A stretch of 64,000 nucleotides of DNA from an uncultured Verrucomicrobiae bacterium (GTDB taxonomy: Bacteria; Verrucomicrobiota; Verrucomicrobiia; Limisphaerales; Palsa-1400): positions 1,664,001-1,728,000 of the forward strand of contig OY969763.1 of NCBI GenBank assembly GCA_963702845.1, in the 5' to 3' direction. Positions within the stretch are counted from its first letter, which is position 1, and every line of letters begins with the position of its first letter. Positions 36,010 through 64,000 of the stretch are shown in pieces. The notes beneath the pieces were generated by a model. That model had not been told where the DNA came from. It worked only from the letters and a program-made list of their open reading frames with translations, and did no database searches. A program made the translations under genes and the position numbers.

Positions 36010-36072
36010 GCCGAACTATGATTATGCGACGGGGTGCAGCTATAATTTTGATATCCGAACGGTTGGTTCATA
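36010..36072 (-). other. attI-like site, type A
   Basis: TATGAAC-N5-GTTCGGATATCAAAATT..GTCGCATAATCATA-GTTCGGC. Confidence 0.7.
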
Positions 36073-36102
36073 TTGGTTGAGGAGACCTGGTTAGGCGACA
36101 TA

Positions 36103-36670: not shown

Positions 36671-36733
36671 GCCTAACTATGAATATGCGACGGGGTGTCG
36701 CGGTAATTTTGATATACGAACGGCCGGTTCATA
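36671..36733 (-). other. attI-like site, type A
   Basis: 63-bp copy ending GTTAGGC; flank GGTGCAGACAAAAGCAAG shared with the 40841 copy. Confidence 0.7.
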
Positions 36734-36957
36734 CCTGATTTTCCGAATGATGTCGTAGGTGCAGACAAAAGCAAGCGGTGAGGGCGGTTCGAACTCTGGG
36801 CAGTGTTTTTTAGCTCCTTCCACGTTCGCTTATTGCCCCAAGCGATTGTGAATGATTTTTTTGGGGTGTCACCCCGTATGGCTGCGCGGTATTTTGTGGA
36901 GGGTGATTGTTGTCTTTGACAGAATATTGTCGGTAAGAATACCGTCCAACTTGTCAT

Positions 36958-39908: not shown

Positions 39909-39971
39909 GGCCAACTATGATTTTGCGACGGGGTGTCGGTATTATTTTGATAGACGAACAGTCGGTTCATA
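39909..39971 (-). other. attI-like site, type A
   Basis: 63-bp copy ending GTTGGCC. Confidence 0.65.
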
Positions 39972-40840: not shown

Positions 40841-40903
40841 ACCTAACAATGTTTATGCGACGGGGTGTCGCGGTCATTTTGATATACGAACAGTCGGTTC
40901 ATA
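40841..40903 (-). other. attI-like site, type A
   Basis: 63-bp copy ending GTTAGGT. Confidence 0.7.
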
Positions 40904-41059
40904 TCTGAGTTTCCAAAGGATGTCTCTGGTGCAGACAAAAGCAAGTGACAAGGGGAGCGGATTAGGGCAACGGTGAATCAGTTCACCGCGCGGTACGCGT
41001 CTACCAACAGTTATTGCGCTGTTGGCTTATCGCCTCCCCAACCTTACTGTGCTTTTACA

Positions 41060-44005: not shown

Positions 44006-44016
44006 AAACAAAGCAG

Positions 44017-44457: not shown

Positions 44458-45199
44458 AAATTACGAACCGTGCCCCGAATTTACGGGTCGCGCGGTTTGT
44501 GTAGATGTAACCCCGCTGCGCAAGCAGCAAAGCGAATTCGGCGAACGCAACGTGTTCAAGGTCGTTTTCGAGGTCGACAAGGAGCGCGAGGACAAAACGC
44601 GCTTCGCGGTCTGGTCCAAGAATTTCACGCCGACGCTGAATGAGAAGGCGAACTTCCGCAAATTCCTGCGCGGCTGGTTCGGTCGCGATCTCACGCAAGC
44701 TGAGTTGAGCGATTTCGATACGGAAACGCTGATTGGCAAGACCGCGAACCTCGTCGTCCTGCATGAGCACAAGGACGGCAAGGTTTACTCGAACATAATC
44801 GCCTGCACTCCTGATAAGAGCGGCAATCCGCTGCAACCCTCCGGGACGTTCGTCCGCAGGAAGGACCGCACTGATGAACCCGAGCAATCGGAGCCTGCTA
44901 GCAATGGCGCGAACGGTAGCAGCGCTGGCGGCGCGTATCGCCGTTCCCAGCAACCTGCGAACAACGGTGCGTCCGTTGATCACTCTTCGGTAAAGGTACA
45001 CGTCGGGCGCTGCGCCGGTTTGGAGTTGCGCGACTTGAGCGCTGAACAAGTGAGCGCGCTCGCTGATAAATGGCTGCCGGGCGCGAAAGCGGCACCGAAG
45101 CAAACCGCCGATGACAAGCGGCTGATTGCTGCACTCGCATGGTTCGTTGATCAAATCGAGGCCGCGACGGTCGCTGCCAAGGACGACCTCACCTATTAA
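44438..45199 (+). CDS. Phage replication/ssDNA-binding-like protein
   Basis: FTPTLNEKANFRKFLRGW, FDTETLIGK, YSNI; position in early operon. Confidence 0.55.
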   Translation: MKIKQSENYEPCPEFTGRAVCVDVTPLRKQQSEFGERNVFKVVFEVDKEREDKTRFAVWSKNFTPTLNEKANFRKFLRGWFGRDLTQAELSDFDTETLIGKTANLVVLHEHKDGKVYSNIIACTPDKSGNPLQPSGTFVRRKDRTDEPEQSEPASNGANGSSAGGAYRRSQQPANNGASVDHSSVKVHVGRCAGLELRDLSAEQVSALADKWLPGAKAAPKQTADDKRLIAALAWFVDQIEAATVAAKDDLTY

Positions 45200-45266
45200 C
45201 CCATGACGCCAAGGTCATGCGGGGTCAGTCACACGACTGGCCCCGCGTTCTTGGGGAGGAATTTTT

Positions 45267-46103
45267 ATGACACTTATTGAACGACAAGCGCCGAGCCACT
45301 GGTATTTGCAGGATGGCCGGCCATTCCATCAAATCGCAAAGAAGGACGGCAGCGGCAACCGCGCCGTCACGCTCGCCGATGCACGCAAGGTGCTCGCGCT
45401 TCCGAGCGTCACAAATATTTTGGGCGTGCTCGCCAAACCTGGGCTCGATGCTTGGAAGATCGAGCAAGGCATCATGGCGGCGCTGACGCTGCCGCGTAAT
45501 GCAGACGAACCGCTCGATACGTTTGCTCGTCGTGTCGTCACTGACATGAGCGAGCAGGTTGAGAAGGCGGCTGATTTTGGCACGGCGATTCATGCGGCGT
45601 GCGAGGCTTACGCAATCAACAAGGAACTTCCCACCGACCAAGCGGTGCTTGGATTCATCCGGGATTGGGTGCGGTGGTTCGATGAGAATGTGGAGCGCAT
45701 TGATTGCGTTGAGCAAGTCGTGGTGCATCCAACGGCGCTTTATGCCGGTCGCGTCGATATGATCGCCAAGATCAAGGATCTCGGCTGGTGTGTTGTTGAT
45801 TTCAAAACGCAGAAGGTGAAACGCTCGGCCAAGGGCGAGCCAAAGGCTGCGTTCTACGAAGCTTGGCCGCTCCAGCTCGCGGCATATCGGCAAGCGGCGC
45901 TTGCATCCAGTGGAAAGTACCTCACGGGACTAGTCTCAGTTGTAATCGACAGCGTCGAACCGGGTCCGGTTCACGTCAAAGTCTGGGCCGACAACATCGA
46001 CTACATGAAGGTGTTCAGCGCGGCGTATATGGCGTGGAGATACATCAAGTGTTACTCGCCGAACGAGACGGCGTTCAACTCGCCGAATCCTGAACTCAAT
46101 TAA
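45267..46103 (+). CDS. Phage PD-(D/E)XK exonuclease
   Basis: PSVTNIL, FGTAIH, YAGRVD, VDFKT, QLAAY. Confidence 0.8.
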   Translation: MTLIERQAPSHWYLQDGRPFHQIAKKDGSGNRAVTLADARKVLALPSVTNILGVLAKPGLDAWKIEQGIMAALTLPRNADEPLDTFARRVVTDMSEQVEKAADFGTAIHAACEAYAINKELPTDQAVLGFIRDWVRWFDENVERIDCVEQVVVHPTALYAGRVDMIAKIKDLGWCVVDFKTQKVKRSAKGEPKAAFYEAWPLQLAAYRQAALASSGKYLTGLVSVVIDSVEPGPVHVKVWADNIDYMKVFSAAYMAWRYIKCYSPNETAFNSPNPELN

Positions 46104-46504
46104 CGACGTAAAAACGTTGAGAGGAATCTGCGAATGCAACTGACCTTTTTATCTGATGCACCGAGTGCGTCGTACAAACGTCGGCCCGGCGCCAGCAATG
46201 GCGTCAGGTCGTCGTCTGGAAGTTCTTTGATCAATGGTTCCTCGGAAATCGTGCGCCACGGAAGCGTTGTCATCGCATCGTGGAAAGATTCTGACGCAGC
46301 ACGCTGCTCCGGGGTGAGTGCCGCAATCGCTTCTGAGTCACGCAAACAGTCGAACAAATCCCAAAGCCGGAAAAAAATGGCCGAATCTTTCGTGCCTGCG
46401 GGCCACCCCCTCCGATTCACGTCACGCGGGTGTAGCTCAAGAAGAAAGCTTAACGGAAGCCGCGGTGCGTGCATGACCGCTTCTTTTTGTTCCTTTGAGA
46501 GCAT
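46100..46504 (-). CDS. Hypothetical protein inserted antisense in the early operon
   Basis: Fills the gap between exonuclease and helicase. Confidence 0.5.
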   Translation of the reverse strand: MLSKEQKEAVMHAPRLPLSFLLELHPRDVNRRGWPAGTKDSAIFFRLWDLFDCLRDSEAIAALTPEQRAASESFHDAMTTLPWRTISEEPLIKELPDDDLTPLLAPGRRLYDALGASDKKVSCIRRFLSTFLRR

Positions 46505-46572
46505 ACCTGCGGGAAGTATTCGCGTTGGATTGCCGCGCGCAACAACAAACCTTTCGGCCCTCTCCTGACTTT

Positions 46573-47883
46573 ATGAATACTTGGCACAACTTCGACGCAG
46601 ACGTGGAGGCCGCCGTCACTGAGGAAAAACGTTTTCTCGGCGCGGCGCACGGCGGGCGCAACGTGTTCCTTACCGGCATGGCCGGCACGGGCAAAAGCAC
46701 GTTGCTCCGAAAGTTCATTCAGGAATGCGCGCGCAAAGTCGATGTCACCGCGCCAACGGGTGTCGCGGCGCTGAACGTGTCGGGTATGACGATTCACCGG
46801 TTTTGCGGGATGATGCTCGGGCCGCAACTTGGGCAATCGAACGAAGATTACTACGGCGTGCTTCGTCGCGATCCGCGCAAGTCGATCCTCGCCGGGTTTA
46901 ATCGGGTGAAGCGATGCGAGATCCTCGTCATCGACGAAATCTCGATGCTGCCAGGTCGGCAGTTGGATTTTATCGAATATCTGTTCCGGCGATTGCGTGG
47001 AAGCGACGAGCCGTTTGGTGGCGTGCAGGTCATCGTGATTGGTGACTTTCTCCAACTGCCACCCGTGCGCACACTAGCGTGTGGGCCACATGGCGAAGAG
47101 CTCCCTTACGATTGGGCGTTTCAATCGCAATCGTGGGAACGCGCAGAGTTCAAAACGATCATTCTCGAAAAAGTGCGGCGGCAAGATGAGCCGAGCTTTG
47201 TTCGCGCATTGGGGAATTTCCGCGTCGGCAATGTTTGGGGAGAAACGGCGCGGATTCTGCAATCGCGCATTCGCAATTTTCCGCCCGCGAATTTGACGCG
47301 GCTCTACACGCACAACGTGCAAGTGGACAAGTGGAACGAGTTTCAGCTTTCCGAATTGCCTGGCGTTGAAACGGTCTTGGTTGCGGAGCAAAGCGGCCCT
47401 GAGCAGCAACGGGAGTTTCTGAAAAAGAATTTGCTCACACCTGAAACGCTGCGGTTGAAGCTCGGCGCAATGGTGATGTTCACCATCAACCGGCAAGCGG
47501 GGCTTGCATCCAATAAGCCCCTGTTCGTTAACGGTCAGATTGGGATTGTTGAGAAGGTTGGACAGTCCGTCGTCACGGTGCGCACTGCGAACGGTGACGA
47601 AATCGAGGTTGAGCCGTTCACGTGGCGTTATGCGCAAGATGATCCTGAGTCGGGCTCATTCACGCAATTTCCGCTGCGGCTGGCGTGGGCGATGACGATT
47701 CATAAATCACAAGGTCTGACGTTGGACGCCGCGTATTTGGATATCCGCGCGGCGCGCGACCCTGGGCAAGCCTACGTCGCGGTGTCGCGGGTGCGATCAC
47801 TGGCCGGCTTGCATTTCAAAGATTGGTTTAAAGGAGTCCACGTGTCGCCCGAGGCGATTCGTTTTTACAAGGAGAGTTTATGA
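46573..47883 (+). CDS. PIF1/RecD-like SF1B DNA helicase
   Basis: TGMAGTGKS, IDEISM, GDFLQLPPV, AMTIHKSQG, YVAVSR. Confidence 0.92.
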   Translation: MNTWHNFDADVEAAVTEEKRFLGAAHGGRNVFLTGMAGTGKSTLLRKFIQECARKVDVTAPTGVAALNVSGMTIHRFCGMMLGPQLGQSNEDYYGVLRRDPRKSILAGFNRVKRCEILVIDEISMLPGRQLDFIEYLFRRLRGSDEPFGGVQVIVIGDFLQLPPVRTLACGPHGEELPYDWAFQSQSWERAEFKTIILEKVRRQDEPSFVRALGNFRVGNVWGETARILQSRIRNFPPANLTRLYTHNVQVDKWNEFQLSELPGVETVLVAEQSGPEQQREFLKKNLLTPETLRLKLGAMVMFTINRQAGLASNKPLFVNGQIGIVEKVGQSVVTVRTANGDEIEVEPFTWRYAQDDPESGSFTQFPLRLAWAMTIHKSQGLTLDAAYLDIRAARDPGQAYVAVSRVRSLAGLHFKDWFKGVHVSPEAIRFYKESL

Positions 47884-48230
47884 TTACAGCGAAGAACAAA
47901 GATATAAAATGGTTCAGGAGTTTGCAGTCCGACGAGCAGGGACGGCCAAAATGGGTGTTCGTGGGCATCGGTCCAAACGGTGAGTTTTGGGTAAAGCAGT
48001 GTGAGGTTCCTTATCTCGGAGATGATGTCTGGGACCAAGCGGAAGATCACTCGCAGCCACTGGTGCTGATTCAGCGCGGGAATGTTTACGTGAATGTGGC
48101 GTTCGCAGCCGAGCTCACGACGAGCGAGTTCACCAGAGGGGAAATAACAGGTTTTATCGCGACGATGATGAAAGTTCTGCAACCGGAGCGTGATTCACAT
48201 GAGGCGATTCGGTTTTACGAGAGGAACTGA
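47880..48230 (+). CDS. Hypothetical phage protein
   Basis: ATGA-coupled to helicase. Confidence 0.55.
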   Translation: MITAKNKDIKWFRSLQSDEQGRPKWVFVGIGPNGEFWVKQCEVPYLGDDVWDQAEDHSQPLVLIQRGNVYVNVAFAAELTTSEFTRGEITGFIATMMKVLQPERDSHEAIRFYERN

Positions 48231-48484
48231 CCGAATGAACCACGAGGTGAAAACTCGGTTACGCGATTACAGCCATGCATCGAACGCTGTGCGCGTTTGT
48301 TTCATACGCGGAAATAATAATTCGATTGATTTGATTGTCGCGGTTGCGACGGAGCTTATGAAACACCGACGGCGAACAACGCGTCGACAGGGTAAACGAG
48401 ATGACACGGTTCGGTTCGTCAAAGTCGACGTCCTGAACTTCGCAAACGAAGTTTTCATTACTGTCAAACAGTGAGTAGTCGGCC

Positions 48485-50473
48485 ATGAACGCAATATCAA
48501 ATACAGATGCCGAGTCGGCGAGGCAACCTGATTCCAGAAGTTTGGCACAGGTGACGGCGCTTCTCGGCGAAGATGTTTTCTTCGTGCCATGCGAATGGGG
48601 AACAAAGCGGCCGCTGGTCACGTACGTGGCGCGACCGTTCGAAGCGACGAAGACGGATGCGTATCGCGCTATCTTTTCGGCGCGAGAAACAAACATTGCC
48701 GTTTACCTTGGGAAGATTTCGGGCGGGCTGTGTGCGATTGATTTTGATTCGGACGCAGACCTTGCGACGTTTCTCGCGCTCAATCCGAAACTGGAAACAA
48801 CGACGCGATCGCGCGGCAGTCGCGGCGCGATGTTGTGGATCCGCATTCAAGGTGATTTTCCAAAGAGCTGCAATCCTGAGCACAAGCATTTCGAGTGGCG
48901 AGCGGATGGGCGGCTTTCAACTATTTACGGCCGGCATCCGGCAGGCATGGATTACCAGCTTGTCGTTGATGCCGTGCCTGTGTCTTTGCCTTTCGCCGAG
49001 ATCGTGTGGCCGAAGGAATGGGAACTGCCCTGGCTGAATGGGAGCGATGAGAAACTACGCGAGCGGCACGGTGAACCGTTTTACACGAATGACAAGGGTG
49101 CACTGACGGGAATCAACGAGGAGTATTGGGCGGGATTGCACGCGGCGGAGCATGAGATTCTTTTCGAGCCTGAAGAGTTGGAGTTCTACGACTACAAGTC
49201 GGAGACCGGGCTGTACGAAGTGGAATCCATAGACGCGGTGCGAAACAAGATTTCCAGTCGCATGCTGGAAGCGTCGCGGCAAGCGAAGGTGTTTGATCTG
49301 CAAAAGAAACGCACGGCTAAGACGCTCAATTCTATCATTTCGCATCTGCGCGGGATTGCGGAAAAGCGCGATGCGTTCAAGGAGAAGCGAAAAACGATTC
49401 ACCTGGCGAACGGCGTTGTTGTGTTCAATGGCACCGACGCGGAACTGCGGCCGTTCTCTCCTGACTTCCGGTCGCGCAACCGCTCGCCGATTGCGTTCGA
49501 TGAGAACGCAAAGTGCGATCGGTTTCTGAATGAACTGGTCTTGCCTGCGGTGCATCCCGAGGACGTCGGTCTATTGCAGCGATTTGCCGGCCTGATGCTG
49601 CTCGGGCACAACCGAGCGCAGCGGTTTTTGATTTTAGACGGTGAAGCCGGGCGCGGCAAAACGCAGTTTGCGAACGTCATGCAAGGCTTGGTCGGGATGG
49701 CGAACGCGACGCAACTCCGAACGAAATACCTGGGCGAACGTTTCGAGCTGTATCGGTATCTGAAAAGGACGCTGCTGGTCGGCGTCGACGTGGAAGCGGA
49801 TTTTTTGAGCACGAAAGGTGCGGCGATTCTGAAAGGGTTGGTTGGCGGCGATTGGTTCGACGCCGAACAGAAAGGCGGCACGGGTTCTTTTCAGGTGCAA
49901 GGCACGTTCAACGTGTTGATCACGTCGAACGCGCGGCTGCGCGTTCGTTTACAGGGGGACGTGGGCGCTTGGCGTCGTCGTTTGAACATCGTGCGCTACG
50001 AAGCGCCTCCGCCTCCGCGTAAGATTCCAGACTTTGGCGGTTATCTGGTCCGCACGGAAGGCAGCGGCATTTTGAATTGGGCACTGGAAGGCGCGCAAAA
50101 GGTTCTCACCGAAATTCCCGATGAAGGGGGCGACTTTGTTCTGACTGCGCGTCAGCGCGGCATTGTGGATTCGTTGCTCGCGGAGAGCGACAGTTTGCGG
50201 TGCTTCCTCCAGGACCGGCTTATCGCCGACACTTACGGGGATCTGACGGTAAGCGAGATTGTTGAGGCTTATGCTGCGTATTGCCCAGAACGGCATTGGC
50301 ATCCGATGCCGATCACGGAAGTGCAGAGCAAGCTCGAAGGGTTAATGCTTGAAATGTTCGGCGTTACCAAACGGCACGACGTCACGCGCGATGATAAGAA
50401 CCAGCGCGGATTTAGCGGCGTGAAGTTCGTTGCACAAGCGGACAGCGCGGAAGCGGAAAGGCTCGCGATATGA
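48485..50473 (+). CDS. Primase-helicase (prim-pol-like N-terminus, D5/P4-type SF3 helicase)
   Basis: CAIDFD, IHLANG, GEAGRGKT, LKGLVGGD, AWRRRL. Confidence 0.88.
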   Translation: MNAISNTDAESARQPDSRSLAQVTALLGEDVFFVPCEWGTKRPLVTYVARPFEATKTDAYRAIFSARETNIAVYLGKISGGLCAIDFDSDADLATFLALNPKLETTTRSRGSRGAMLWIRIQGDFPKSCNPEHKHFEWRADGRLSTIYGRHPAGMDYQLVVDAVPVSLPFAEIVWPKEWELPWLNGSDEKLRERHGEPFYTNDKGALTGINEEYWAGLHAAEHEILFEPEELEFYDYKSETGLYEVESIDAVRNKISSRMLEASRQAKVFDLQKKRTAKTLNSIISHLRGIAEKRDAFKEKRKTIHLANGVVVFNGTDAELRPFSPDFRSRNRSPIAFDENAKCDRFLNELVLPAVHPEDVGLLQRFAGLMLLGHNRAQRFLILDGEAGRGKTQFANVMQGLVGMANATQLRTKYLGERFELYRYLKRTLLVGVDVEADFLSTKGAAILKGLVGGDWFDAEQKGGTGSFQVQGTFNVLITSNARLRVRLQGDVGAWRRRLNIVRYEAPPPPRKIPDFGGYLVRTEGSGILNWALEGAQKVLTEIPDEGGDFVLTARQRGIVDSLLAESDSLRCFLQDRLIADTYGDLTVSEIVEAYAAYCPERHWHPMPITEVQSKLEGLMLEMFGVTKRHDVTRDDKNQRGFSGVKFVAQADSAEAERLAI

Positions 50474-51072
50474 GTCTGGACGTTTCGAAGCTGGAGAAGG
50501 TTGTCGATCTGGCGAACGGCATGAAGCGCGCGCGTTGTCCGGCCTGTGCTGAAACAGGCAGCGACAAAACCGGTGTGCATCTTCGCGTCTATCCCGATGG
50601 CCGATTCGGTTGCTGCGTGCACCCACAAGACAAGGAGCATCGGAAGCGAATCTTTGCCCTGGCCGGCGAGCGGACGACTGCGCAACGGCGCGGGATCGTC
50701 GTCAAGGTGGCGGCGGTCAAAATCAGTCAGCCGGTAAAGTTGCGAATTCTTGTGCAAGTTGGGCAGTCGTTTGCGGCGGACGCTTCGGACGCCTCTTTGC
50801 AAGTCGAAATGACTTCGGAAAATTGTCGGACGGCTCGGACGGGTGAAACGAAGTCCAACGGCGAAACTGTTGAAGAATCTCGGACGCTACGGACGGGTTC
50901 TCTTTACTCTTTTAACGGGGCAGAAAAAACAGAAGAAAATAATAGTAATACGCTAAAAGACTTTCGCCCCCCCGTCCGTAGCGTCCGAGAGTGTCAAACG
51001 GATGGAACTGTGGTGGACGAAACAGACGCCGAAATTTTAGAAAGGATGGAAAGCGATGCCTCTCCCTTTTGA
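50470..51072 (+). CDS. Zinc-finger protein whose 3' half carries repeat motifs
   Basis: RARCPAC..FGCC; coupled to primase. Confidence 0.6.
   Translation: MSLDVSKLEKVVDLANGMKRARCPACAETGSDKTGVHLRVYPDGRFGCCVHPQDKEHRKRIFALAGERTTAQRRGIVVKVAAVKISQPVKLRILVQVGQSFAADASDASLQVEMTSENCRTARTGETKSNGETVEESRTLRTGSLYSFNGAEKTEENNSNTLKDFRPPVRSVRECQTDGTVVDETDAEILERMESDASPF
50776..50990. repeat. Candidate replication origin: paired CGGACG iterons around an AT-rich core
   Basis: Pairs at 50776, 50826, 50880; perfect 20-bp inverted repeat 50878-50897 / 50971-50990. Confidence 0.7.
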
Positions 51073-51661
51073 ACAGCAACCCCGTGAGTCGGATAAAGCG
51101 TTTGCGGCGTTCAGTTTGTATCTGAGCGATGGTCCGCAACGGTCCGCCGAGTCGGTAGCAAAGAAGTTAGCAAAGAGTGCACACCTTGTGCGGAGGTGGG
51201 CGAGCAAGTTCGATTGGGTGGCGCGGGTGAAGGCGCATGCGGCGCATTTGGCGATTGTCGAACGGGAAGCGACGGAGGCTTTGACTCGCGGCAAGGCGGC
51301 GGAATGGGTCAGCCGACAAGAGGCGCATCGCGAGGAGGAATGGAAGATGCGCGGGGAGTTGATCGAGCTCGCGCGTGAGGCCATTGCGCGATGGAAGAAA
51401 GCGCCGCAACGGTGTGGCACGCTGGAAGGCATCGCGCGACTGCTGGATTTGGCGAGCAAGCTGGGGCGGTTGTCGTCGGGCATGGCGACGGATCGAACGG
51501 AAGTGAGCGGCGAACTGACGGCGACGCTGAAGCTCGAGTTCGTCCAGGCACTGGATGAGGTCTACGGGACGGCAGTGCCGTCGGCCATTCTGTCCCCTGC
51601 TCCCGCGATCGACGCCGAAGTTGTTACGGAACCGAAAGCGTTGCCGGAGGCGAAGAAATGA
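51056..51661 (+). CDS. Probable terminase small subunit
   Basis: ESDKAFAAFSLYL..HTH..RWASKFDW; coupled to large terminase. Confidence 0.65.
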   Translation: MPLPFEQQPRESDKAFAAFSLYLSDGPQRSAESVAKKLAKSAHLVRRWASKFDWVARVKAHAAHLAIVEREATEALTRGKAAEWVSRQEAHREEEWKMRGELIELAREAIARWKKAPQRCGTLEGIARLLDLASKLGRLSSGMATDRTEVSGELTATLKLEFVQALDEVYGTAVPSAILSPAPAIDAEVVTEPKALPEAKK

Positions 51662-53052
51662 GTTCGGTTAAGGCGTATCTGATGGATGGGCGCAAGGCTG
51701 GGTGTCCGCGCGACCAGATGGAGAATTTTCTGAGGGCAGAGATTCACCTGCAAGCGCGGCAGTTGGCGGCGTCAGCGGCCGCGCGGTTTTGTGACCGGCG
51801 AGACGGGCCGACGGCGATCGGCTACGGCGGTGCGCGTGGCGGCGGCAAGTCGCATTGGTTGCTCGCGCAAATGGGCGCTGACGACTGTCAACGCGTGCCT
51901 GGGCTGAAGTGTTTGCTTCTGCGCAAGGTCGGTAAGGCAAACGTGGAGCATTTCGAAGATCTACGGCAACGGCTGTTTTCAAAACTGCCGCATGAATTTT
52001 CGGCGTATCGAGGCGTGCTCACGTTCGCGAATGGTTCGCGCATCATCGCCGGGCACTTTCAAAACGAGAAGGACATCGACGCGTATCTCGGTCTCGAATA
52101 CGACGTGATTGGGATCGAAGAAGCGACGACGTTGTCGTCGCGAAAGTATCAGGACATTTCGACGTGCTGCCGCACGAGCAAGCCGAACTGGCGGCCGAGG
52201 ATTTATTCGACGACGAATCCCGGAGGCGTCGGGCATCAATGGTATAAGGCAAAATACATCGTTCCGTTTCGCGACGGAAAGGAAACGGAGACGCGATTCA
52301 TTGCGGCGCGCGTGGCGGACAATCGTTACAACAATCCTGAGTATGTGCGGGTTTTGGAAGGGCTGCCAGCATGGCAACGGCGGCTTTGGTTGGATGGCGA
52401 TTGGGATGTGGCGGCGGGACAGTTCTTCACGACGTTCCGGCGCGAGGTGCATGTCATTGACGATTTCGATGATAAGCGGGCGCGGGAATGGTTCTGTGCG
52501 CTGGATTATGGTTTTAACCATTACACGGTCGTTTATCTCGGCTGCACGGATGGCGACGGGAATATGTTCGTTGTGGATGAACATGCGGAACGGCTTTGGT
52601 TGCCGCAACGGCATGCACTTGCGATCAAGGCGATGGTGCAACGGCGGACAATCGGAAATCGCAAATTGGAGGTTTCAGATTTGAAACGGTTCGTCGCCGG
52701 CGCGGATGTGTTCGGTCGACAGAGCGACGGCACCACGGTCGCGGCGCAGTATGCGCGCGAAGGAATCACGCTGCGTTGTGCGAACACGGATCGTGTGAAT
52801 GGTTGGGCTGAGATTTTGCATCGTCTGGGGGATGCCGACGCGAAGATCAAGCCGACTCTTTTTATTCATCGGCGATGCGCGCGGCTGATTGATTGTCTGC
52901 CGGCGCTGCAACGCGATCCGAATCGGCCGGAGGATGTGATGAAGGTGGATGCGGATGAAGGAGTCGGAGGCGATGACACCGCCGATGCGTTGCGTTACCT
53001 GGTCGCGACGAAGTCGCGCGTGGTTGTTCAACGGAAGTTGAGGGGGCTCTGA
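51658..53052 (+). CDS. Phage terminase large subunit
   Basis: YGGARGGGKS, IGIEEA, TTNPGG, LDYG, DDTADALRY. Confidence 0.92.
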   Translation: MSSVKAYLMDGRKAGCPRDQMENFLRAEIHLQARQLAASAAARFCDRRDGPTAIGYGGARGGGKSHWLLAQMGADDCQRVPGLKCLLLRKVGKANVEHFEDLRQRLFSKLPHEFSAYRGVLTFANGSRIIAGHFQNEKDIDAYLGLEYDVIGIEEATTLSSRKYQDISTCCRTSKPNWRPRIYSTTNPGGVGHQWYKAKYIVPFRDGKETETRFIAARVADNRYNNPEYVRVLEGLPAWQRRLWLDGDWDVAAGQFFTTFRREVHVIDDFDDKRAREWFCALDYGFNHYTVVYLGCTDGDGNMFVVDEHAERLWLPQRHALAIKAMVQRRTIGNRKLEVSDLKRFVAGADVFGRQSDGTTVAAQYAREGITLRCANTDRVNGWAEILHRLGDADAKIKPTLFIHRRCARLIDCLPALQRDPNRPEDVMKVDADEGVGGDDTADALRYLVATKSRVVVQRKLRGL

Positions 53053-53086
53053 AGAAAAAACTGAAGACTGAGGGACTGAGGACGGA

Positions 53087-53143
53087 GCGGCGGCGGGCCA
53101 CTGACTCGTGGATTGTAAACGCAGTCCCGACTCCTAGTTAGCT
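53087..53143 (-). repeat. Partial attC site
   Basis: GCGGCGGCGGGCCACTGACTCG.GGATTGTAAACGCAG as at 63878; R'' AGCTAAC. Confidence 0.65.
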
Positions 53144-53509: not shown

Positions 53510-53570
53510 GCGGAGTCCAGAGGTTGCAAATCTCTGGCGTGGATGCGAGCCTCACTGGCCCCTGGAGGCG
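53510..53570 (+). repeat. Repeat X copy 1 (copy 2 at 54206-54269)
   Basis: GCGGAGTCCAGAGGTTGCAAATCTCTGGCGTGGA..TGCGAGCC.CAC.GGCC.CTGGAGGCG. Confidence 0.85.
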
Positions 53571-53656
53571 GCGAAGATGATGTAGCGGATGCGTTGCGGT
53601 ATTTGGTCGCGACGAAGTCGCGGGTGGTGGTTCAACGGAAGTTGAGGGGGTTGTGA
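53564..53656 (+). pseudogene. Diverged duplicate of the terminase 3' end
   Basis: GGGEDDVADALRYLVATKSRVVVQRKLRGL* versus GVGGDDTADALRYLVATKSRVVVQRKLRGL*. Confidence 0.9.
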
Positions 53657-57104: not shown

Positions 57105-57718
57105 GAAAGGAGGTTGGCAGAACAGGGAAAGAGTTCAAGCCGGTGACTAGGTTTAGTCGGAGAACTGAGATTTGAAACGGCTAAGCAGTGAATCGCCTTA
57201 GCGATTCGACTGCGTGCCAGAGTAACCCAGCGTCGGGGTTGGTGGTGTCTTTGGGCGTCTTTGTCTTTGGGGCGAGCCGGTAGGCGAGGCGGTTGTCTTT
57301 ACGGGTTCGCGTTGGCGCGCGTTCCCTAGCGGGGGAGGGGGCGAAGTGTTGCTAGCTATTCCGAGCGCGCCTGCCCCCTCCCCCAGCAGCCCGCGTCGAC
57401 CGCGATTAGCGGAACTGCGACGTGGTCTGGGGGAGGGGGCGCGGGGGCGGGAGCGGGGAGCGCGCGAGGGGGGCAATGCGCTGGTGCGCGAGGGGGAAAA
57501 TGGGCGGGTGCCGCCGGCGTGCGGCGGGGAAATCAAGGCGGCGAGAGACGCTGGATTATATGAGCAAAGCGAACCGATGTTGTCTTTGGTGGCGCTGTCG
57601 GACGGTTGAGGCGTTTGGTTTGGGTGGAGGGCTAACTGATGCCGAAGGTTCGTACCAGCTTGAGCGACTGGCGGCTGCGCTGCTCTGTGCGCGCGAGTCG
57701 CGCCTCCCTATGTGGAAA

Positions 57719-57752
57719 GCAGCGCAGATGACAGGCGCGCAACTGACTTTGT
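57719..57752. repeat. Identical 34-bp repeat (also 59670-59703, 62296-62329)
   Basis: GCAGCGCAGATGACAGGCGCGCAACTGACTTTGT. Confidence 0.9.
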
Positions 57753-57812
57753 CTTTGTGGGTCGTCGAGCTGCCAATAAGCGTTCGAATCACCGAGAGCG
57801 GACGCGAACGAT

Positions 57813-58495: not shown

Positions 58496-58909
58496 TCATT
58501 GTGGTGGCATCCTCTCAAGGATCTCGACACTCTTAACAATCCGACAAGCATCGTCAGAGTATGAAATTCTTGCTCGGTAATTCTGATAGCCACAACGTCG
58601 CGACGAGCCTTGCAGCCGATAAATCTTACCGCGTGGCTCATCGGATGCCTGCAAAGGTCCGACAATGTTGGAAAACATGATGTGACCGCAATTGTCGCCA
58701 TGCGCTTTCTCGTAATCCCTCATCGCCCGCTTGTAAAATTCCACGTTCTTCTGAAACTGCCTCTCCGCATCGTCCAAACTCGCAATCGCCTGTCCTGCCT
58801 CTGAATTGCGGGAAACTCCAATCTTGGTGACGCCCGACTGGCAGCCAGTGATAACAACTGCGGCGGCGCAAAATGAAAGTAAGATGAACTTGTGGTGCGT
58901 GTTTGACAT
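58496..58909 (-). CDS. Cassette gene: lipoprotein
   Basis: ITGC lipobox; ATG 2 bp after GTTAGGC. Confidence 0.7.
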   Translation of the reverse strand: MSNTHHKFILLSFCAAAVVITGCQSGVTKIGVSRNSEAGQAIASLDDAERQFQKNVEFYKRAMRDYEKAHGDNCGHIMFSNIVGPLQASDEPRGKIYRLQGSSRRCGYQNYRARISYSDDACRIVKSVEILERMPPQ

Positions 58910-58911
58910 CG

Positions 58912-59161
58912 GCCTAACTCTGATTATGCGACACGCTGTCGCGGTCATTTTGATATACGAACGGTTGGTTCATATTGGTTGAGGAGATTATTGTTATGCT
59001 GGCGCTGCGAATCAAGCGCAACACAACGCGCTCGCGAGCACGGCGACGACATGCCGGAGATCCGCGATTGGAAGTGGAGTGCGTAGCGGCAGACCAACGA
59101 GGCGCTATTTATCAATTTAGCTCGGGAGGTTTCACACAGGCTCGCGACTTGTTAGGCGTCA
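58912..59161 (-). repeat. About 250-bp composite spacer ending in a type A attI-like site (58912-58974)
   Basis: Closely similar to 63131-63380; begins TGACGCCTAACAAGTCGCGAGCCTGTGTGAAACC. Confidence 0.85.
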
Positions 59162-59566
59162 TTGGAATTGGCCCGGTCCAAGCAGATAACGATAAAAGCC
59201 TGGATACTCACTGCGCAGCAGCGGAATGACGACAGCCGGAGCGTGAGTCCCACAATTAAACCTCTTCCTTTTCACGTAAACAATGGCGGAACGTGAATCT
59301 GACGAATCCAACTCAATGCGACCGCCCGAGTCGCGCATGTCCTGACTCAAATGCTCTGGTTCGTAGTCCAACATCACGAGCACTCTGCCGTCAGCCAACG
59401 TAAGGCGATTGCTCGACACAGACGTAATGGCAATCGAATTGGTGAGCGGATCGTTGTTGAGCGGGATGGGACGATAAAAACTGACGCCGACCGTGACTGC
59501 GAGGAAGGTGAAGAGAGTTACGATACCGACTGCGCCCCAAACCGTAACTCTGACGATGTGTTTCAT
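59159..59566 (-). CDS. Cassette gene: membrane-anchored protein
   Basis: N-terminal TM; stop abuts GCCTAAC. Confidence 0.65.
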   Translation of the reverse strand: MKHIVRVTVWGAVGIVTLFTFLAVTVGVSFYRPIPLNNDPLTNSIAITSVSSNRLTLADGRVLVMLDYEPEHLSQDMRDSGGRIELDSSDSRSAIVYVKRKRFNCGTHAPAVVIPLLRSEYPGFYRYLLGPGQFQ

Positions 59567-59569
59567 TAC

Positions 59570-59621
59570 GCGTAAGAATTAATCCGCGACAACAGTTCGC
59601 ATAGTTTTAATCCGCGAACAA
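59570..59621 (-). other. attI-like site, type B
   Basis: TTGTTCGCGGATTAAAACTATGCGAACTGTTGTCGCGGATTAATT-CTTACGC. Confidence 0.55.
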
Positions 59622-59729
59622 GGGTTTTTAGGGTCGAGGTTCAAAGTTCCGACGTTTCGTGTGGATAACGCAGCGCAGATGACAGGCGCGCAACTGACTT
59701 TGTTATTTAACCACTAACGGTGTTTGTGG

Positions 59730-60371
59730 TTATTTCGCAAGGAGCGGTTTCAGTGCGGCCTCGATTACGGCAAGGTCACGAGGGGTGGCTTCAATATACA
59801 AGGAGTTGATACCGTCAGCATAAAAGTGCGTTGCTGAGGACCAATCGATGTTTATGGTTTTCAGCCATTTGTTCAGATTGTCGTTGAAAGCAACATCGCG
59901 ATGTTTGCCGCCTTCCGGGAGCGAAAACCTTTGCAACAGGTACCTGACCTGTCGAGTCGAAATTCTTTCCACTGCAGTTCGCCGCTACTCGCGCTGTTTC
60001 GTTGTGTGCGCATTGCAAGCCACTTTCCGGTCGCAGCTGATTTCGGGGGGTCCGTCGGTAAGATATCTTCAGGGGCGGAGTAATTTTTTATACTCGCGTT
60101 CTTCACGAGCTGCGGCCCTGTTTCTGTAGTTAGCTTCTTTCACCAAATCCAGATAATACCCGGCGGCTTTGTTCTTTGGGTCAAGTTTCAACGCGAGTTT
60201 AAGGGATTCCGCAGCATCCGCTAACTTGCCCATCTCGTATTGCTGTTTACCTTTTAGGACCAGCGCTCGAAGGGGTTTGTCTTGAATCGGATTAGCAATG
60301 GCATTGGTGATTTCGGCCCGTGCAAAAATCGAAGTGAGGAAGAAAATGACCGCGAAACTCCACGTTTTCAT
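59730..60371 (-). pseudogene. Probable frameshifted secreted TPR protein
   Basis: Signal peptide + TPR to 60069; overlapping frames 59873-60106 and 59730-59972 appear to continue it. Confidence 0.4.
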
Positions 60372-60465
60372 TTTTCCAAGGGTGCCTGTCGCCGGCCGAA
60401 GAGTCAACGAGGCGGTTTGTTGGTGTGTCGCTGTCAGGTGCGCTTGTCGTCGATGTTGTTTTGTG

Positions 60466-60873
60466 TTAACGCAGCGTAGATGACCTCATAGGAAAAAGCC
60501 GCAACAATGCTAGCGAGCCGATTATGCTCGCTGCGACGCCCGCAGATGCGAACGCAACGAAGGGTAACGCCTCCCCGATTGAAAGACCGGCAAATAGGGG
60601 CAGAGCTACAACGACGGCGTAAGTCCCAATCACCGAGGGCAGCAAGTCAGACAGAGCCTCGGCGCTAAACCCCCTGCGCCCGATGAAACCTCCGCAAAAG
60701 AACATCACCAGAACGGTAAGCATAAAGGCTTCGGGAGCATGGTTACGGCCGTCCCTGATATTTCCCAGCGGTACGAAGGCCACAAAAATTAACCCTGCAG
60801 CGACAGCCGCCAGAATGGCGCCCGTAATGAATCCGAGCGCGTTTCTAAAGAATGATGGTTCGCGGATGTTCAC
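60466..60873 (-). CDS. Cassette gene: four-TM protein
   Basis: Follows R' GTTAAGC; stop inside an R''-like CGTTAAC, rest of attC missing. Confidence 0.65.
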   Translation of the reverse strand: MNIREPSFFRNALGFITGAILAAVAAGLIFVAFVPLGNIRDGRNHAPEAFMLTVLVMFFCGGFIGRRGFSAEALSDLLPSVIGTYAVVVALPLFAGLSIGEALPFVAFASAGVAASIIGSLALLRLFPMRSSTLR

Positions 60874-60879
60874 TGAATG

Positions 60880-60973
60880 GCTTAACGGCCCGGCTCAGGC
60901 AGGCCGGGACAACGGTGTGGGATTGCTAACAGACGCCCGATCCCGGCCTTGCCTGCAGCCCGGCTGGTTTTAC
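60880..60973 (-). repeat. attC site
   Basis: R'' GTAAAAC, arms GCTGCAGGCAAGGCCGGGA / TCCCGGCCTGCCTGAGC, R' GTTAAGC. Confidence 0.85.
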
Positions 60974-61318
60974 CTGTTTCTTGAACTCATGGCTGCTCGC
61001 TCGCGACACTGCCTCATATAGTTCACCGACCGTAAACTCTCTAACTCGGCCAGAACAAAGGCCCAAGAAATCCAAACCTTCCGGGTGAAACAAAAACTCG
61101 TCCGGTGCCAAGCCGAAGGTATCTCGGAATCCGCGCTCCTCAGAGGATAGCACTACATCGAACCGTGACTGGACCTCCTTTAAGATATCCACGCCGTCAT
61201 CCCCGGTAACACCCAAGTCCTTCTCGAACTTTGTCGATGGTACGATCGGAGTCTTGTCCGACAAGCCAGTGAACTCGCGGACGAACTTGACGAACTTTTC
61301 AAAGCTTGGTGCGCCCAT
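60926..61318 (-). CDS. Cassette gene: DUF1493/ACP-like protein
   Basis: TKFEKDLGVTGDDG..FHPEG..FTVGEL; reads into attC. Confidence 0.65.
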   Translation of the reverse strand: MGAPSFEKFVKFVREFTGLSDKTPIVPSTKFEKDLGVTGDDGVDILKEVQSRFDVVLSSEERGFRDTFGLAPDEFLFHPEGLDFLGLCSGRVREFTVGELYEAVSRASSHEFKKQVKPAGLQARPGSGVC

Positions 61319-61335
61319 CGATTCCTTTTCCTTCG

Positions 61336-61508
61336 GTATAACTATGATTATGCGACGAGGTGTCGCGGTAATTTTGATATACGAACGGTTGGTTCATATT
61401 GGTTGAGGAGACTATTGTTCTGCTGCCGCTGGGAATCAAGTTTAACACAACGCGCTCGCGAGCACGGCGACGACATGCCGGAGATCCGCGATTGGAAATG
61501 GAGCGGGT
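61336..61508 (-). repeat. Truncated composite spacer with type A attI-like site (61336-61398)
   Basis: Matches 63131 onward for about 170 bp. Confidence 0.85.
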
Positions 61509-61516
61509 GACCGCTT

Positions 61517-62203
61517 TTATGGGTAGCGCTTGAACACCGGATTGGTAGTCATGCCAAACTGGTTTATGATCGGGGGAATTTTTCCGCCGACGTGTTCCTG
61601 CGAGGCGATTTCATCCACCACAATATTTTGCACCGACGTGTTGGTATTCCCTTTTAGACATTCAAACACTTCCTTACGCTGTGTGTCTCCGCGAATCGAG
61701 AGGTAGATGATCGGTGCTATGTTATCTCGTTGGGCTGGCGAGTTTATCACACGTATCCACACGAAAGGATACTCGTCGTTAACTATTCTCTCAAAGGGAG
61801 ATGGCCCCATCCAGGCTCTTGGCACCAGAATATCCTTTTCGTGCAACCACGTTGGATGGTTCAGAAGCTCAGCAATGTTGCCCAGCGTCATTCCACTGTG
61901 GAAGTGACGAGCAAACATCTGTAGAACTGCGCGACTACGATGATCCACACTATATTGAGGATTGTTAGCGATGTCGTTCCAAAACTTCGGCGGCTCGTTT
62001 GTCAAACCAGAGTCCCGAAGCAATCCCAAAGCCGAAAGCAAGTTATTCGTACTCGCATGGACGTCTGCGATCTTCTTTAGAGCGGTGTGAAATTGCCGTT
62101 CCTGAATATGGGAGTTGGTGGTCGATTGTGCTTCTTGCGGTGTAACGCACCCGCCGAGCAGCAGCAATGCACCCGATAGCAGAACCTTAAGCGCGACTTT
62201 CAT
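61517..62203 (-). CDS. Cassette-type gene: lipoprotein
   Basis: LGGC lipobox. Confidence 0.7.
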   Translation of the reverse strand: MKVALKVLLSGALLLLGGCVTPQEAQSTTNSHIQERQFHTALKKIADVHASTNNLLSALGLLRDSGLTNEPPKFWNDIANNPQYSVDHRSRAVLQMFARHFHSGMTLGNIAELLNHPTWLHEKDILVPRAWMGPSPFERIVNDEYPFVWIRVINSPAQRDNIAPIIYLSIRGDTQRKEVFECLKGNTNTSVQNIVVDEIASQEHVGGKIPPIINQFGMTTNPVFKRYP

Positions 62204-62210
62204 TAACTTG

Positions 62211-62245
62211 CGCCAACAGTTCGCATAGTTTTAATCCGCGAACAA
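62211..62245 (-). other. attI-like site, type B (short form)
   Basis: Identical to the 59570 site up to the internal GTTG, then diverges as GTTGGCG. Confidence 0.55.
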
Positions 62246-62361
62246 GGGGTTTTTGAGGTTCAAGGTTCAAACTTCCGGCGCTTCGTGTGGATAACGCAGC
62301 GCAGATGACAGGCGCGCAACTGACTTTGTCTTTAAGCAGCGTTGGAATTACCAAGAGCGGA

Positions 62362-62457
62362 CGCGAACGCTCAGCTCGCCGATGGCGGCCCCTGCTCGGC
62401 GCCCGATTTGTCGGACGGCGCCGTTGGGCAGCCACCCGGTGAAGCACCGGCTTCGAC
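62362..62457 (-). repeat. attC site (degenerate R'')
   Basis: Arms CTTCACCGGGTGGCTGCCC / GGGCCGCCATCGGCGAG, R' GTTCGCG. Confidence 0.65.
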
Positions 62458-62811
62458 ATCCTGTGAGGAAATTACACGTGGGGTGAAGGGCTTCCTCACC
62501 CACAACTCTCGCTCGGTAAAGGTAAACCTGTACTCAACCTTATCTCTGTCAACAATGCGCAGCCAGTTGTGGCCTGTCCGGCCCGTTGAGGGCATGTGGG
62601 AGACGAATCTGATCGACTCACCATCGTAGCCAACGTCGTAGATTATGAACTGCTCCCCATCGAAGGGGTCAATTCCCGTGACACGAAACTGTCCATCGGC
62701 GACTGAAATCGTGTATTCGGTGCGGGGATAATCGCAGGAATCGTCTGGGCACATGGCAACCCACGTCCCACAAAGCGGATGATCGGGCGTAACTGGATAA
62801 ACGTATGACAT
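62371..62811 (-). CDS. Cassette gene: hypothetical protein
   Basis: ATG 8 bp after R' GTTCGGC. Confidence 0.65.
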   Translation of the reverse strand: MSYVYPVTPDHPLCGTWVAMCPDDSCDYPRTEYTISVADGQFRVTGIDPFDGEQFIIYDVGYDGESIRFVSHMPSTGRTGHNWLRIVDRDKVEYRFTFTERELWVRKPFTPRVISSQDVEAGASPGGCPTAPSDKSGAEQGPPSAS

Positions 62812-62819
62812 GGGACTAT

Positions 62820-62918
62820 GCCGAACGCTGGAACTCACACACGTCGGACCAAACGACGCTGACCGCGAAGCGGAACTGAGAGTGCCATCCGGCGTTGTGT
62901 GCAGTGATTTTGTTAGAC
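62820..62918 (-). repeat. attC site
   Basis: R'' GTCTAAC, arms CTGCACACAACGCCGGA / TCCGACGTGTGTGAG, R' GTTCGGC; related to 58393 site. Confidence 0.88.
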
Positions 62919-63119
62919 ATCGTTTTTCTTTCGTCCAAGCAGTGCATGAACAATGGTGAAAATTATCCAGGCACACGCAATAGTAATGGCTGGTCCGTAA
63001 AACATTTCGGATGTCGAAAGGCCATTAACCAAATCCAGAGAGCGCAACAGTGCGAGCATCCCGACGCCAACAGCGTAAAGAACAAGCGAAAGCGGTAAAG
63101 CGATCTTCAAAAGTTTCAT
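62913..63119 (-). CDS. Cassette gene: two-TM protein
   Basis: Stop inside R''. Confidence 0.65.
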   Translation of the reverse strand: MKLLKIALPLSLVLYAVGVGMLALLRSLDLVNGLSTSEMFYGPAITIACAWIIFTIVHALLGRKKNDV

Positions 63120-63130
63120 ACGCTCACGAG

Positions 63131-63380
63131 GGCTAACAATGATTATGCGACGGGGTGTCGCGGTAATTTTGATATACGAACGGTTGGTTCATATTGGTTG
63201 AGCAGACTATTGTTCTGCTTCCGCTGCGAATCAAGCGTAACAGAACGCGCTCGCGAGCACGGCGACGACATGCCGGAGATCCGCGATTGGAAGTGGAGCG
63301 GGTAGCTCCACACGAACAAGGCGCAATCTATCAATTTAGCTCGGGAGGTTTCACACAGGCTCGCGACTTGTTAGGCGTCA
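63131..63380 (-). repeat. About 250-bp composite spacer ending in a type A attI-like site (63131-63193)
   Basis: Second full copy of 58912-59161. Confidence 0.85.
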
Positions 63381-63399
63381 AAGCACCAGACATAAGTTC

Positions 63400-63849
63400 T
63401 TACTCATCTACACAGCGAACTGCTTCAACGACCTCTATTCGGAAACAGCGAAATGACATCCTTACACCCGCACCTGGCTCAAAACTCACAATAAGATATG
63501 GAGGCAATCTCTCACCGTTTGTGAACGTGCCGCGCTCTTGAGTGTTGATGGACAACTCAACTATCTGGTTGATGTGGTCAAAGCGATCCATCTTAAAATC
63601 ATCTACATCGTGAAAGCGCAATGTGACCAGAACATCGTGGCCAGAATGTGTAGCTCCTCGTTGCGTGGCTCCCAATACTCGAAGCTTCGCTGTCACGACA
63701 GGAAAGACATTGCGGTCATCCCAATCGCCCGGCTTCACGTCGCCGCGCCACAAGTGCAAGTCAAAAATCTCCGCATCATGGAATGACGGCCATTCGCCAA
63801 AAAACGCCGTCAGCTTTTGGCTATCTTGAACAACTGATTGGACGTGCAT
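63400..63849 (-). CDS. Cassette gene: Imm50-like immunity protein
   Basis: FGEWPSFHDAEI..VTLRF.DV..FDHINQI..FRCFRIEV. Confidence 0.75.
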   Translation of the reverse strand: MHVQSVVQDSQKLTAFFGEWPSFHDAEIFDLHLWRGDVKPGDWDDRNVFPVVTAKLRVLGATQRGATHSGHDVLVTLRFHDVDDFKMDRFDHINQIVELSINTQERGTFTNGERLPPYLIVSFEPGAGVRMSFRCFRIEVVEAVRCVDE

Positions 63850-63858
63850 GGGATTGGT

Positions 63859-63951
63859 GCTTAACAACTCAGCTCAGCGGCGGCGGGCCACTGACTCGAG
63901 GATTGTAAACGCAGCGTCCTCCCGCCGTCGGCTGGGGCGCTCTGGTTAGGC
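63859..63951 (-). repeat. attC site
   Basis: R'' GCCTAAC, arms CAGCCGACGGCGGG / CCCGCCGCCGCTG, R' GTTAAGC. Confidence 0.88.
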
Positions 63952-64000
63952 TGCGGTGGTCGTATGTTTTTCATCTGATGTCTTCTGTCTCTTTCTGCGC

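Follow-up and report, generated by a model that had tools for sequence, protein, structure and literature searches.

A repeated junction element in a verrucomicrobial cassette array is a mosaic of three modules with a phosphoketolase relic and a putative recombination end

Introduction

Integron crossover is described as falling between the G and the TT of the motif GTTRRRY in both attI and attC (PMC8876359). In the account of PMC2727003, a classical attC recombines as a folded bottom strand that presents R and L boxes, an unpaired spacer and extrahelical bases. Cassettes that lack an open reading frame (ORF) and carry a promoter are known and are described as ending in a classical attC, and one segment, from the 5′ untranslated region (5′-UTR) of qacE, is reported to be fused to several unrelated cassettes (PMC8876359). 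Other elements are drawn to the same sites: group IIC introns are described as targeting attC (PMC8876359), as are members of the IS1111 family of insertion sequences (IS), which are defined by subterminal inverted repeats of 11-13 bp together with a DEDD transposase (PMC11187229), and some members of the IS1182 family are said to target palindromes (PMC5678879). Here we compare with these systems a 250-bp repeat found at the junctions of a cassette array in a 64,000-nucleotide (nt) stretch of DNA from an uncultured Verrucomicrobiae bacterium (contig OY969763.1). The whole stretch is referred to as the window, all coordinates are window coordinates, and the copies of the repeat are read on the minus strand.

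From about 35.4 kb to its end the window holds small ORFs on the minus strand, spaced by repeats that run from ...TAAC to GTTA.... Several of these junctions resemble attC, and the one at 60876-60978 forms a long hairpin (-24.5 kcal/mol; z-score (z) -2.09, with 2 of 200 shuffles as good). Neither an ORF scan nor the NCBIfam integron-integrase model found an integron integrase gene (intI) within the window, which ends at position 64000, short of the array's head. On these grounds we take the region to be a minus-strand cassette array of the integron type, with an integrase that is not seen here. The explanation of the repeat that we tentatively prefer, holding it with somewhat less than even confidence, is that it joins the attC of an upstream cassette (module L) to an ORF-less unit (modules M and R) that lies between two integron-type crossover points and has been moved by site-specific recombination, R being a non-canonical recombination end.

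Results

The 250-bp repeat is built of three modules

A repeat search of the window returned a family with members at 58911-59161 and 63130-63380 (91% identical) and at 61335-61585. Together with alignment, it placed two full copies at 58912-59161 and 63131-63380, in agreement with a first-pass annotation of this DNA made from sequence alone, which had also recognised that the third copy is shortened (genuine homology ends at ~61508 by alignment and blastn) and that a short derivative lies at 36010-36096 (confirmed by repeat search, alignment and blastn). Both full copies open on the minus strand with TGAC-GCCTAAC-AAGTCGC, continue into GAGCCTGTGTGAAACC and end at GTT. The genes flanking the copies had been said to differ, and this was borne out by an all-against-all blastp of 41 array ORFs, in which no pair was found at an expect value (E) below 0.01.

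Three further copies of the 60-63-nt core of module R had been overlooked (36671-36733, 39909-39971 and 40841-40904), giving seven in total, all within the minus-strand array. Two degenerate core patterns each recover precisely these seven, the first also picking up an unrelated site with two mismatches at 14630; dinucleotide shuffles gave 0.53 and 0.27 expected matches for the two patterns, and the observed count was reached in none of 100. All copies are confined to one 28-kb array. Alignment and blastn of the modules against the window show that the repeat is a mosaic of three modules, L, M and R, present in two, three and seven copies, respectively. Both the L and the R end are common to just 2 of the 7 copies, and within the three long copies the modules show similar divergence. 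The modules are located as follows.

63315..63380, minus strand: module L, copy 1; 66 nt, TGAC-GCCTAAC start and CTT-GTT end (blastn, inverted repeat, fold)
59096..59161, minus strand: module L, copy 2; 95% identical to copy 1 (blastn, fold)
63208..63314, minus strand: module M, copy 1 (alignment, blastn)
58989..59094, minus strand: module M, copy 2; 90.6% identical to copy 1 over 106 nt (blastn)
61413..61508, minus strand: module M, copy 3; without L, its homology beginning just inside the stop and terminator region of the relic described below
63131..63207, minus strand: module R, copy 1; left extension of 13-14 nt, 60-nt core and GTTAGCC, with the crossover G at 63137
61336..61412, minus strand: module R, copy 2; end GTTATAC
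58912..58987, minus strand: module R, copy 3; end GTTAGGC, start codon 2 nt beyond
36010..36096, minus strand: short form, 87 nt; GCCTAAC, then CAG, then module R
36671..36784, minus strand: R core (36671-36733) with a left module, M′, reaching to 36784
40841..40954, minus strand: R core (40841-40904) with M′
39909..39971, minus strand: R core alone, 35 nt past the stop codon of the upstream ORF

M′ is common to the copies at 36671 and 40841 (85% identity). Genes in reverse orientation, on the plus strand (36958-38283 and 40993-41518), lie just upstream of these two copies, so that R and M′ stand between divergent genes; those at 36958 and ~40993 also begin with lipoprotein-type signal peptides.

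Conservation of module R stops at a crossover-like point

Module R is 60-77 nt long and contains a discrete 60-nt core, of which the seven copies align without gaps and are 78-97% identical over the 60 nt. On the left it begins abruptly at TATGAAC, as seen in three unrelated contexts, and four copies carry an extra 13-14 nt beyond this border; on the right, conservation halts precisely at G/TT (the slash marks the crossover) in 7/7 copies. R is the commonest junction module of the array and provides the left side of the crossover for whichever cassette follows, the start codon of the next ORF lying 2 to 17 nt beyond the 7-nt core site.

Because the bases past the crossover are part of the cassette downstream, they are expected to be complementary to the inverse core of that same cassette. 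In six pairs of junction and cassette, five of them R junctions (a small set, with sites picked by eye), the four bases after G/TT matched the inverse core of the downstream cassette at 19 of 24 variable positions; the mean over permutations was 14.5, and 8 of 720 reached 19. One rare change is matched on both sides, TTATAC following the R copy at 61336 and GTAAAAC being the inverse core of the attC at 60975. Together with the halt of conservation at GTT in every copy, this test supports the view that R probably ends at a true recombination junction. The earlier suggestion that the repeat is a composite of attC and attI parts with an IS-like end can be kept in so far as it starts at the inverse-core motif GCCTAAC and ends at a crossover-like G/TT; the IS-like end finds no support, as set out below for module L.

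The crossover of R is bracketed by an imperfect inverted repeat, GCATAA-6 nt-TTAGGC, a layout that by analogy resembles the general form of double-stranded core sites of tyrosine recombinases and would be attI-like in shape. It is conceivable on this basis that R is a cassette-borne, double-stranded site of the attI type and that M and R together make up a portable, ORF-less entry point with a promoter, which could be dropped at any attC crossover to create a new preferred insertion point. Besides the simple-site-like inverted repeat around G/TT, such a role would fit the conservation of the left side and the variability of the right, as in attI, the lack of need for a hairpin partner (attI being described as the canonical double-stranded partner of attC; PMC2727003), and the seven different cassettes that follow R, of which those tested fit the inverse-core rule. 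Against this, no intI is adjacent in the window, R also closes ordinary ORF-bearing cassettes (39909, 36010) in the manner of a cassette-borne site, and narrow literature searches turned up no precedent. We regard an attI-type role for R as decidedly improbable.

Several other candidates were tried for R and rejected. A small protein read through it (…YEPTVRISK…, in a frame open in all seven cores) would lack a start codon in two of the seven, and its stop positions differ. A structured RNA or DNA shows no compensatory change and the shuffle control cannot separate structure from chance, the sole support being that the loops of the predicted stem-loops vary more (6/10 columns) than the stems (6/26). 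An operator for a WYL regulator, considered on the model of a DriD-like palindrome, was dropped: the published site differs, and the surroundings of the WYL gene at 34135 contain no palindrome like that of R. The palindrome GAAC-5 nt-GTTC is not known to match any LexA motif. A consensus scan found no promoter inside R on either strand.

Module M carries the 3′ end of a phosphoketolase gene

Module M is 96-107 nt long in its three copies and starts right after the GTT of L; nowhere in the repeat do the copies differ more than over the first ~17 nt of M. A blastn search of 72,556 plasmid records with the repeat (E up to 1) matched 38 of them, the best at 91% over 45 nt (E 7e-8). Among the best 20 of the 38, only query positions 86-138 were covered, so that neither L nor R had a plasmid match there, and 7 of the 20 were annotated as phosphoketolase, the other rows being without a listed gene in an annotation table that is incomplete. 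In the one plasmid record inspected, 18 nt separate the match from the stop codon of a coding sequence annotated as phosphoketolase, and the gene runs along the window's plus strand. Translation of that strand gave AREHGDDMPEIRDWKWS(G/A) and then a stop in all three M copies; the C-terminal end of a Shinella phosphoketolase reads ...VREHGEDMPEIRDWKWPYPRQ.

Profile searches returned the same family. The sole Pfam match for each of the three translations was XFP_C, at profile positions 182-202 of 202 and with E 0.04-0.06, which falls below the curated cut-off, as expected because only ~20 residues are involved, and in NCBIfam the relic matched phosphoketolase models only (positions 774-792 of 801, best E 4e-4). 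A tblastn search of the window with the C-terminal 520 residues of the Shinella protein recovered the three M copies (E 1e-5 to 4e-5), and no further piece of phosphoketolase that was credible. The 20-residue relic itself gave nothing by tblastn against the plasmids at E up to 1e-3, being too short a query for that database. Since blastn, the translations, Pfam and NCBIfam, and tblastn all agree, M is identified as a phosphoketolase 3′ end: it carries the last ~16 codons and the stop of the gene, antisense to the cassettes. The relic and the promoter-like motif at the border of M and R are found at these positions.

63249..63305, plus strand: phosphoketolase 3′-end relic, copy 1; AREHGDDMPEIRDWKWSG and stop codon (blastn, translation, Pfam, NCBIfam, tblastn)
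59030..59086, plus strand: phosphoketolase 3′-end relic, copy 2 (translation, Pfam, NCBIfam, tblastn)
61454..61510, plus strand: phosphoketolase 3′-end relic, copy 3, followed by a hairpin and a TTTTAT run (translation, Pfam, NCBIfam, tblastn)
63206..63234, minus strand: sigma-70-like motif TTGATT-17 nt-AATAGT at the M/R border, present also at 61411-61439
58987..59015, minus strand: sigma-70-like motif TTGATT-17 nt-AATAAT at the M/R border

In the copy at 61336, the hairpin and TTTTAT run after the relic's stop look like the gene's own intrinsic terminator; on the minus strand, a hairpin followed by a T-rich run was flagged in all three M copies. The promoter-like motif likewise occurs with each of the three, and the copy at 58987-59015 alone passed the 9-of-12 threshold of the scan. 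A plus-strand ORF over M was also considered, as it is open in the three copies, and was rejected: its changes are mostly non-synonymous, its start is unconserved, and it is accounted for by the relic in another frame.

That M is pseudogene scrap would suit a history in which the copies are inert leftovers with no present role, an old junction having been duplicated from one cassette to another through homologous recombination, gene conversion or slippage. The confinement of every copy to one 28-kb array, the lack of any in the other genomes scanned and the similar divergence of L, M and R within the three long copies point the same way. However, the flanks are unrelated up to sharp borders, which speaks against homologous exchange because such exchange needs flanking homology, and the R cores stay gap-free and 78-97% identical while their surroundings all differ. 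Inert leftovers therefore seem to us quite unlikely.

Module L closes on itself

An inverted-repeat search found that L closes on itself through 10-nt arms at 63315-63324 and 63363-63372, which are 90% complementary with 38 nt between them. Both copies fold as DNA with their ends paired (copy 1, -9.5 kcal/mol, z -1.87; copy 2, -9.6 kcal/mol, z -2.29), and L has the compact imperfect inverted repeat that is a feature of attC, with ~60 nt from inverse core to core. By alignment, the two L copies differ at 3/66 positions and the 17 nt after L's GTT at about 6-7/17; the copy at 61336 has no L, and its homology opens just past L's GTT and the divergent stretch. Because L is self-closing, has paired ends in the fold, is followed by divergence directly after its GTT and is missing from the third copy, we regard it as a separate unit, and infer that it is a complete small attC-like hairpin belonging to the upstream cassette. 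The sequence GAGCCTGTGTGAAACC, formerly read as a switch at GAGCC into an IS-like end, is instead the middle of this small element, enclosed by the inverted repeat GCCTAAC...CTTGTT. In blastn searches with the modules, no other attC within the window starts like L and continues differently, and for this reason there is no sign of a switch inside L.

Searches found no features of a transposable element or intron in the repeat

The first-pass annotation went on to propose a miniature inverted-repeat transposable element (MITE) directed at attC. More broadly, the repeat might be a MITE, an IS end (IS1182-like or IS1111-attC-like) or the remnant of a group IIC-attC intron, and it does sit at junctions of the attC type, which are described as targets of IS1111-family members and group IIC introns (PMC11187229, PMC8876359), as palindromes are said to be of some IS1182-family members (PMC5678879). 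Little else fits. The sole terminal inverted repeat from end to end is the 12-nt pair of core and inverse core, as in any attC, and the 11-13-bp subterminal inverted repeats that define IS1111 are absent from the repeat. No DEDD transposase was found among the window ORFs, and none of the 96 scanned matches a transposase family. There is no target-site duplication, the flanks of the two full copies sharing nothing past TGAC on the left, and both ends occur together in 2/7 copies only. A pattern of 20 specified bases from R, run against 185,579 species-representative genomes (the window's own genome is not among them), gave two chance matches only, at loci that share nothing with R outside the pattern itself, and so no true copy elsewhere. 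Rfam (58800-63500, E up to 10) returned three weak matches, none of them on any copy and none an intron family, group II introns included. An origin from any of these elements is close to refuted, and we give it only a very slight chance.

No classical attC fold is seen in R or the short form

GCCTAAC lies upstream of three of the seven R copies (63131, 58912 and 36010), at a distance of ~230 nt in the full copies and 73 nt in the short form, and an inverse core RYYYAAC and a core GTTRRRY are both present in these 3/7 copies only. In neither R nor the short form are the two arms complementary to each other, as they are in a classical attC. Should R be a site borne by cassettes, then it is a non-classical one, because there is no attC fold and 4/7 copies are without an inverse core.

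Another way to account for the upstream GCCTAAC is that the whole 250 bp is one oversized attC, with GCCTAAC on the left as its inverse core and GTTAGGC or GTTAGCC on the right as its core, that the 87-nt form is the uninterrupted version, and that ~165 bp including the relic were inserted inside it and the interrupted site then spread to unrelated cassettes. The full repeat does have an outer inverted repeat (12-nt arms, 83% complementary, 228 nt apart), and its plus-strand fold pairs both ends at -48.8 kcal/mol (z -3.36). The short form at 36010-36096 links GCCTAAC to R, and its GCCTAAC matches the start of its own cassette at 4/4 positions; short AGTC repeats flank the extra 165 bp and could account for its deletion, and the top of an attC stem is described as sometimes long and branched (PMC2727003). 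However, in the composite fold only the two ends pair, the end stem carrying no further stacked helix at the place of the L box, and L closes on itself at an internal GTT. The short form, moreover, remains unfolded (z about +0.5 and +0.9), and four of the seven R copies have no inverse core at all. A single oversized attC is in our judgement unlikely, though it is the foremost of the alternatives.

Other repeats and the setting of the array

A second long junction repeat, here called type B, is present in three minus-strand copies (57537-57812, 59567-59729 and 62204-62370) that have a 45-nt block in common; two of them are 91% identical over ~140 nt, and at their ends both have an inverted repeat of 6 bp around a 13-nt loop. 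Type B copies sit just upstream of minus-strand ORF starts and alternate with the 250-bp repeat along the array. Module borders at GTT were proposed for type B and rejected, as the alignment does not bear them out, and neither type B nor M′ had meaningful matches in the plasmid records. An attC-like family of ~95 nt, type A, is 64-91% identical among its copies, has TAAC...GTTA ends and lies at 38426-38526, 40376-40480 and 63856-63954, with a partial copy, shortened or variant, at ~53060-53140 beside the end of a phage-like block. In the simple fold test the type A sites did no better than shuffles.

A tyrosine recombinase gene (22153-23529) directly follows the transfer-messenger RNA (tmRNA) gene at 21738-22089, an arrangement that is the usual mark of an island integrated at ssrA. 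The 3′ end of the tmRNA has no second occurrence within the window, so that an att repeat for the island was not found. With 19 bits against the NCBIfam integron-integrase model, for which the cut-off is 265 bits, this recombinase, the only one in the window, is not an integron integrase. Between it and the array lie an ORF for a zeta-toxin-like kinase (24288-24878) and a gene for a large STAND/AAA-type nucleoside triphosphatase with a pentapeptide-repeat match (26139-28412). The island also has two repeat families outside the region studied, one of 58 nt (23620-23677, 23954-24011, 28426-28483) and one of 69 nt (32821-32889, 33344-33412, 42240-42308). A gene for a helix-turn-helix (HTH)-WYL-WCX regulator (34135-35304, plus strand) is convergent with the low-coordinate end of the cassette run.

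The run is broken up by the phage- or satellite-like block at 42693-53052 (42.7-53.05 kb) on the plus strand, the products of which include an HTH protein, a PD-(D/E)XK nuclease, a PIF1-type helicase, a primase-polymerase/D5-like protein and a large terminase. A stretch 83% identical to the final 93 nt of the gene for this terminase is present again at 53564-53656, suggesting that a second, decayed element adjoins the block. One cassette (63400-63867) encodes an Imm50-family immunity protein, and several array ORFs start with lipoprotein-type signal peptides (for example 58909 downward, 39890 downward and 61517-62203, the last encoding a lipoprotein of 228 amino acids); thus, the array may store cell-envelope and immunity functions.

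Discussion

In the arrangement that we tentatively favour, M and R form an ORF-less unit of ~185 bp wedged between the G/TT that ends L and the G/TT that ends R, with no conserved ORF, both borders at GTT and a 3′ site unlike a classical attC. M would be captured chromosomal DNA, comprising the phosphoketolase relic and its terminator and then the sigma-70-like promoter motif. The unit would have been spread by integrase-mediated recombination at GTT sites, rather than by transposition or block duplication, with R acting as a non-canonical recombination end that has a simple-site layout and dispenses with the classical hairpin. Its predicted effect would be to equip the next cassette, on its upstream side, with a hairpin resembling a terminator, a promoter and ~75 nt of conserved leader; judging from weak consensus matches, a transcript begun at the M/R border would bear R as this leader.

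A number of observations weigh against this arrangement. The integron integrase is absent from the window, and the genome scan offered no copy from another genome for comparison. The start of M varies among the copies beyond what is expected for copies of one cassette, and the core site of L is a loose fit to GTTRRRY, being GTTCGTG in one copy and GTTGGTC in the other. No recognisable inverse core lies upstream of 4/7 R copies. The short form joins GCCTAAC almost directly to R, as though GCCTAAC and R were one unit into which the rest of L and M had been inserted, and it does not fold as an attC hairpin (-6.1 and -3.8 kcal/mol, z +0.49 and +0.90). The fold test itself discriminates poorly, with z < -2 in only one of six other attC-like sites of the array; the three type A sites and one of two sites of a further type, C, likewise fail to beat shuffles. 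The two stem-loops of R, 94.5% paired, show compensatory change in 0/13 pairs. Finally, the promoter motif is weak, reaching 9/12 in one copy and 8/12 in two, and the region overall has 5 promoter-like matches when 3.7 are expected.

Integron arrays are defined, and detected by software, through hairpin-forming attC sites, yet the commonest junction module here ends at what appears to be a genuine crossover point and has no hairpin partner. If R is active, then present definitions and detectors overlook a class of sites, chiefly in uncultivated lineages, which hold most cassettes; if it is inert, the array provides a tidy case of mosaic decay in a sedentary array. In either event the phosphoketolase scrap, in three copies, is a rare marker of history, pointing to ordinary chromosomal DNA that a junction element took up and that later spread with it to unrelated cassettes. 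It is thereby relevant to a problem not yet solved, the way in which cassettes and their sites arise and get copied. Were the improbable attI-type role of R to prove true, silent positions deep in a long array would become new sites of capture and expression, and the scrap would be a natural barcode of one unit copied to at least three junctions. A narrow literature search gave no account of attI-like sites carried by cassettes, nor of an integron that contains phosphoketolase scrap, and such accounts may exist.

Of the known systems, IS1111-attC elements and group IIC-attC introns resemble the repeat in being found in or beside attC, but the repeat has neither subterminal inverted repeats nor a DEDD transposase nor an intron RNA match. 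ORF-less promoter-bearing cassettes are closer, in that M and R together are non-coding, lie between two crossover points and have a promoter-like motif; they differ in that M+R ends in R instead of a classical attC and also holds a scrap of a housekeeping gene. The qacE 5′-UTR segment is a precedent for a non-coding, promoter-bearing piece common to unrelated cassettes, although that segment lies inside the downstream cassette, whereas the piece shared here ends at the crossover and so lies outside it.

Classical attC sites range over roughly 57-141 bp, a span that the full repeat, at 250 bp, exceeds. They are similar to the junctions described here in their position at cassette 3′ ends, in an inverse-core start of the RYYYAAC type (in 3/7 copies here), in the GTTRRRY end with its crossover at G/TT, and in that whatever follows the crossover is already part of the next cassette; there is, however, no arm complementarity in R or the short form that would let a bottom strand fold, and 4/7 copies have no inverse core. 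With respect to attI, there are seven R copies inside the array rather than a single site at its head, and no intI adjoins R in the window, but R shares with attI a sequence that is conserved to the left of G/TT with varying cassettes to the right, independence of a hairpin, and an imperfect inverted repeat that brackets the crossover.

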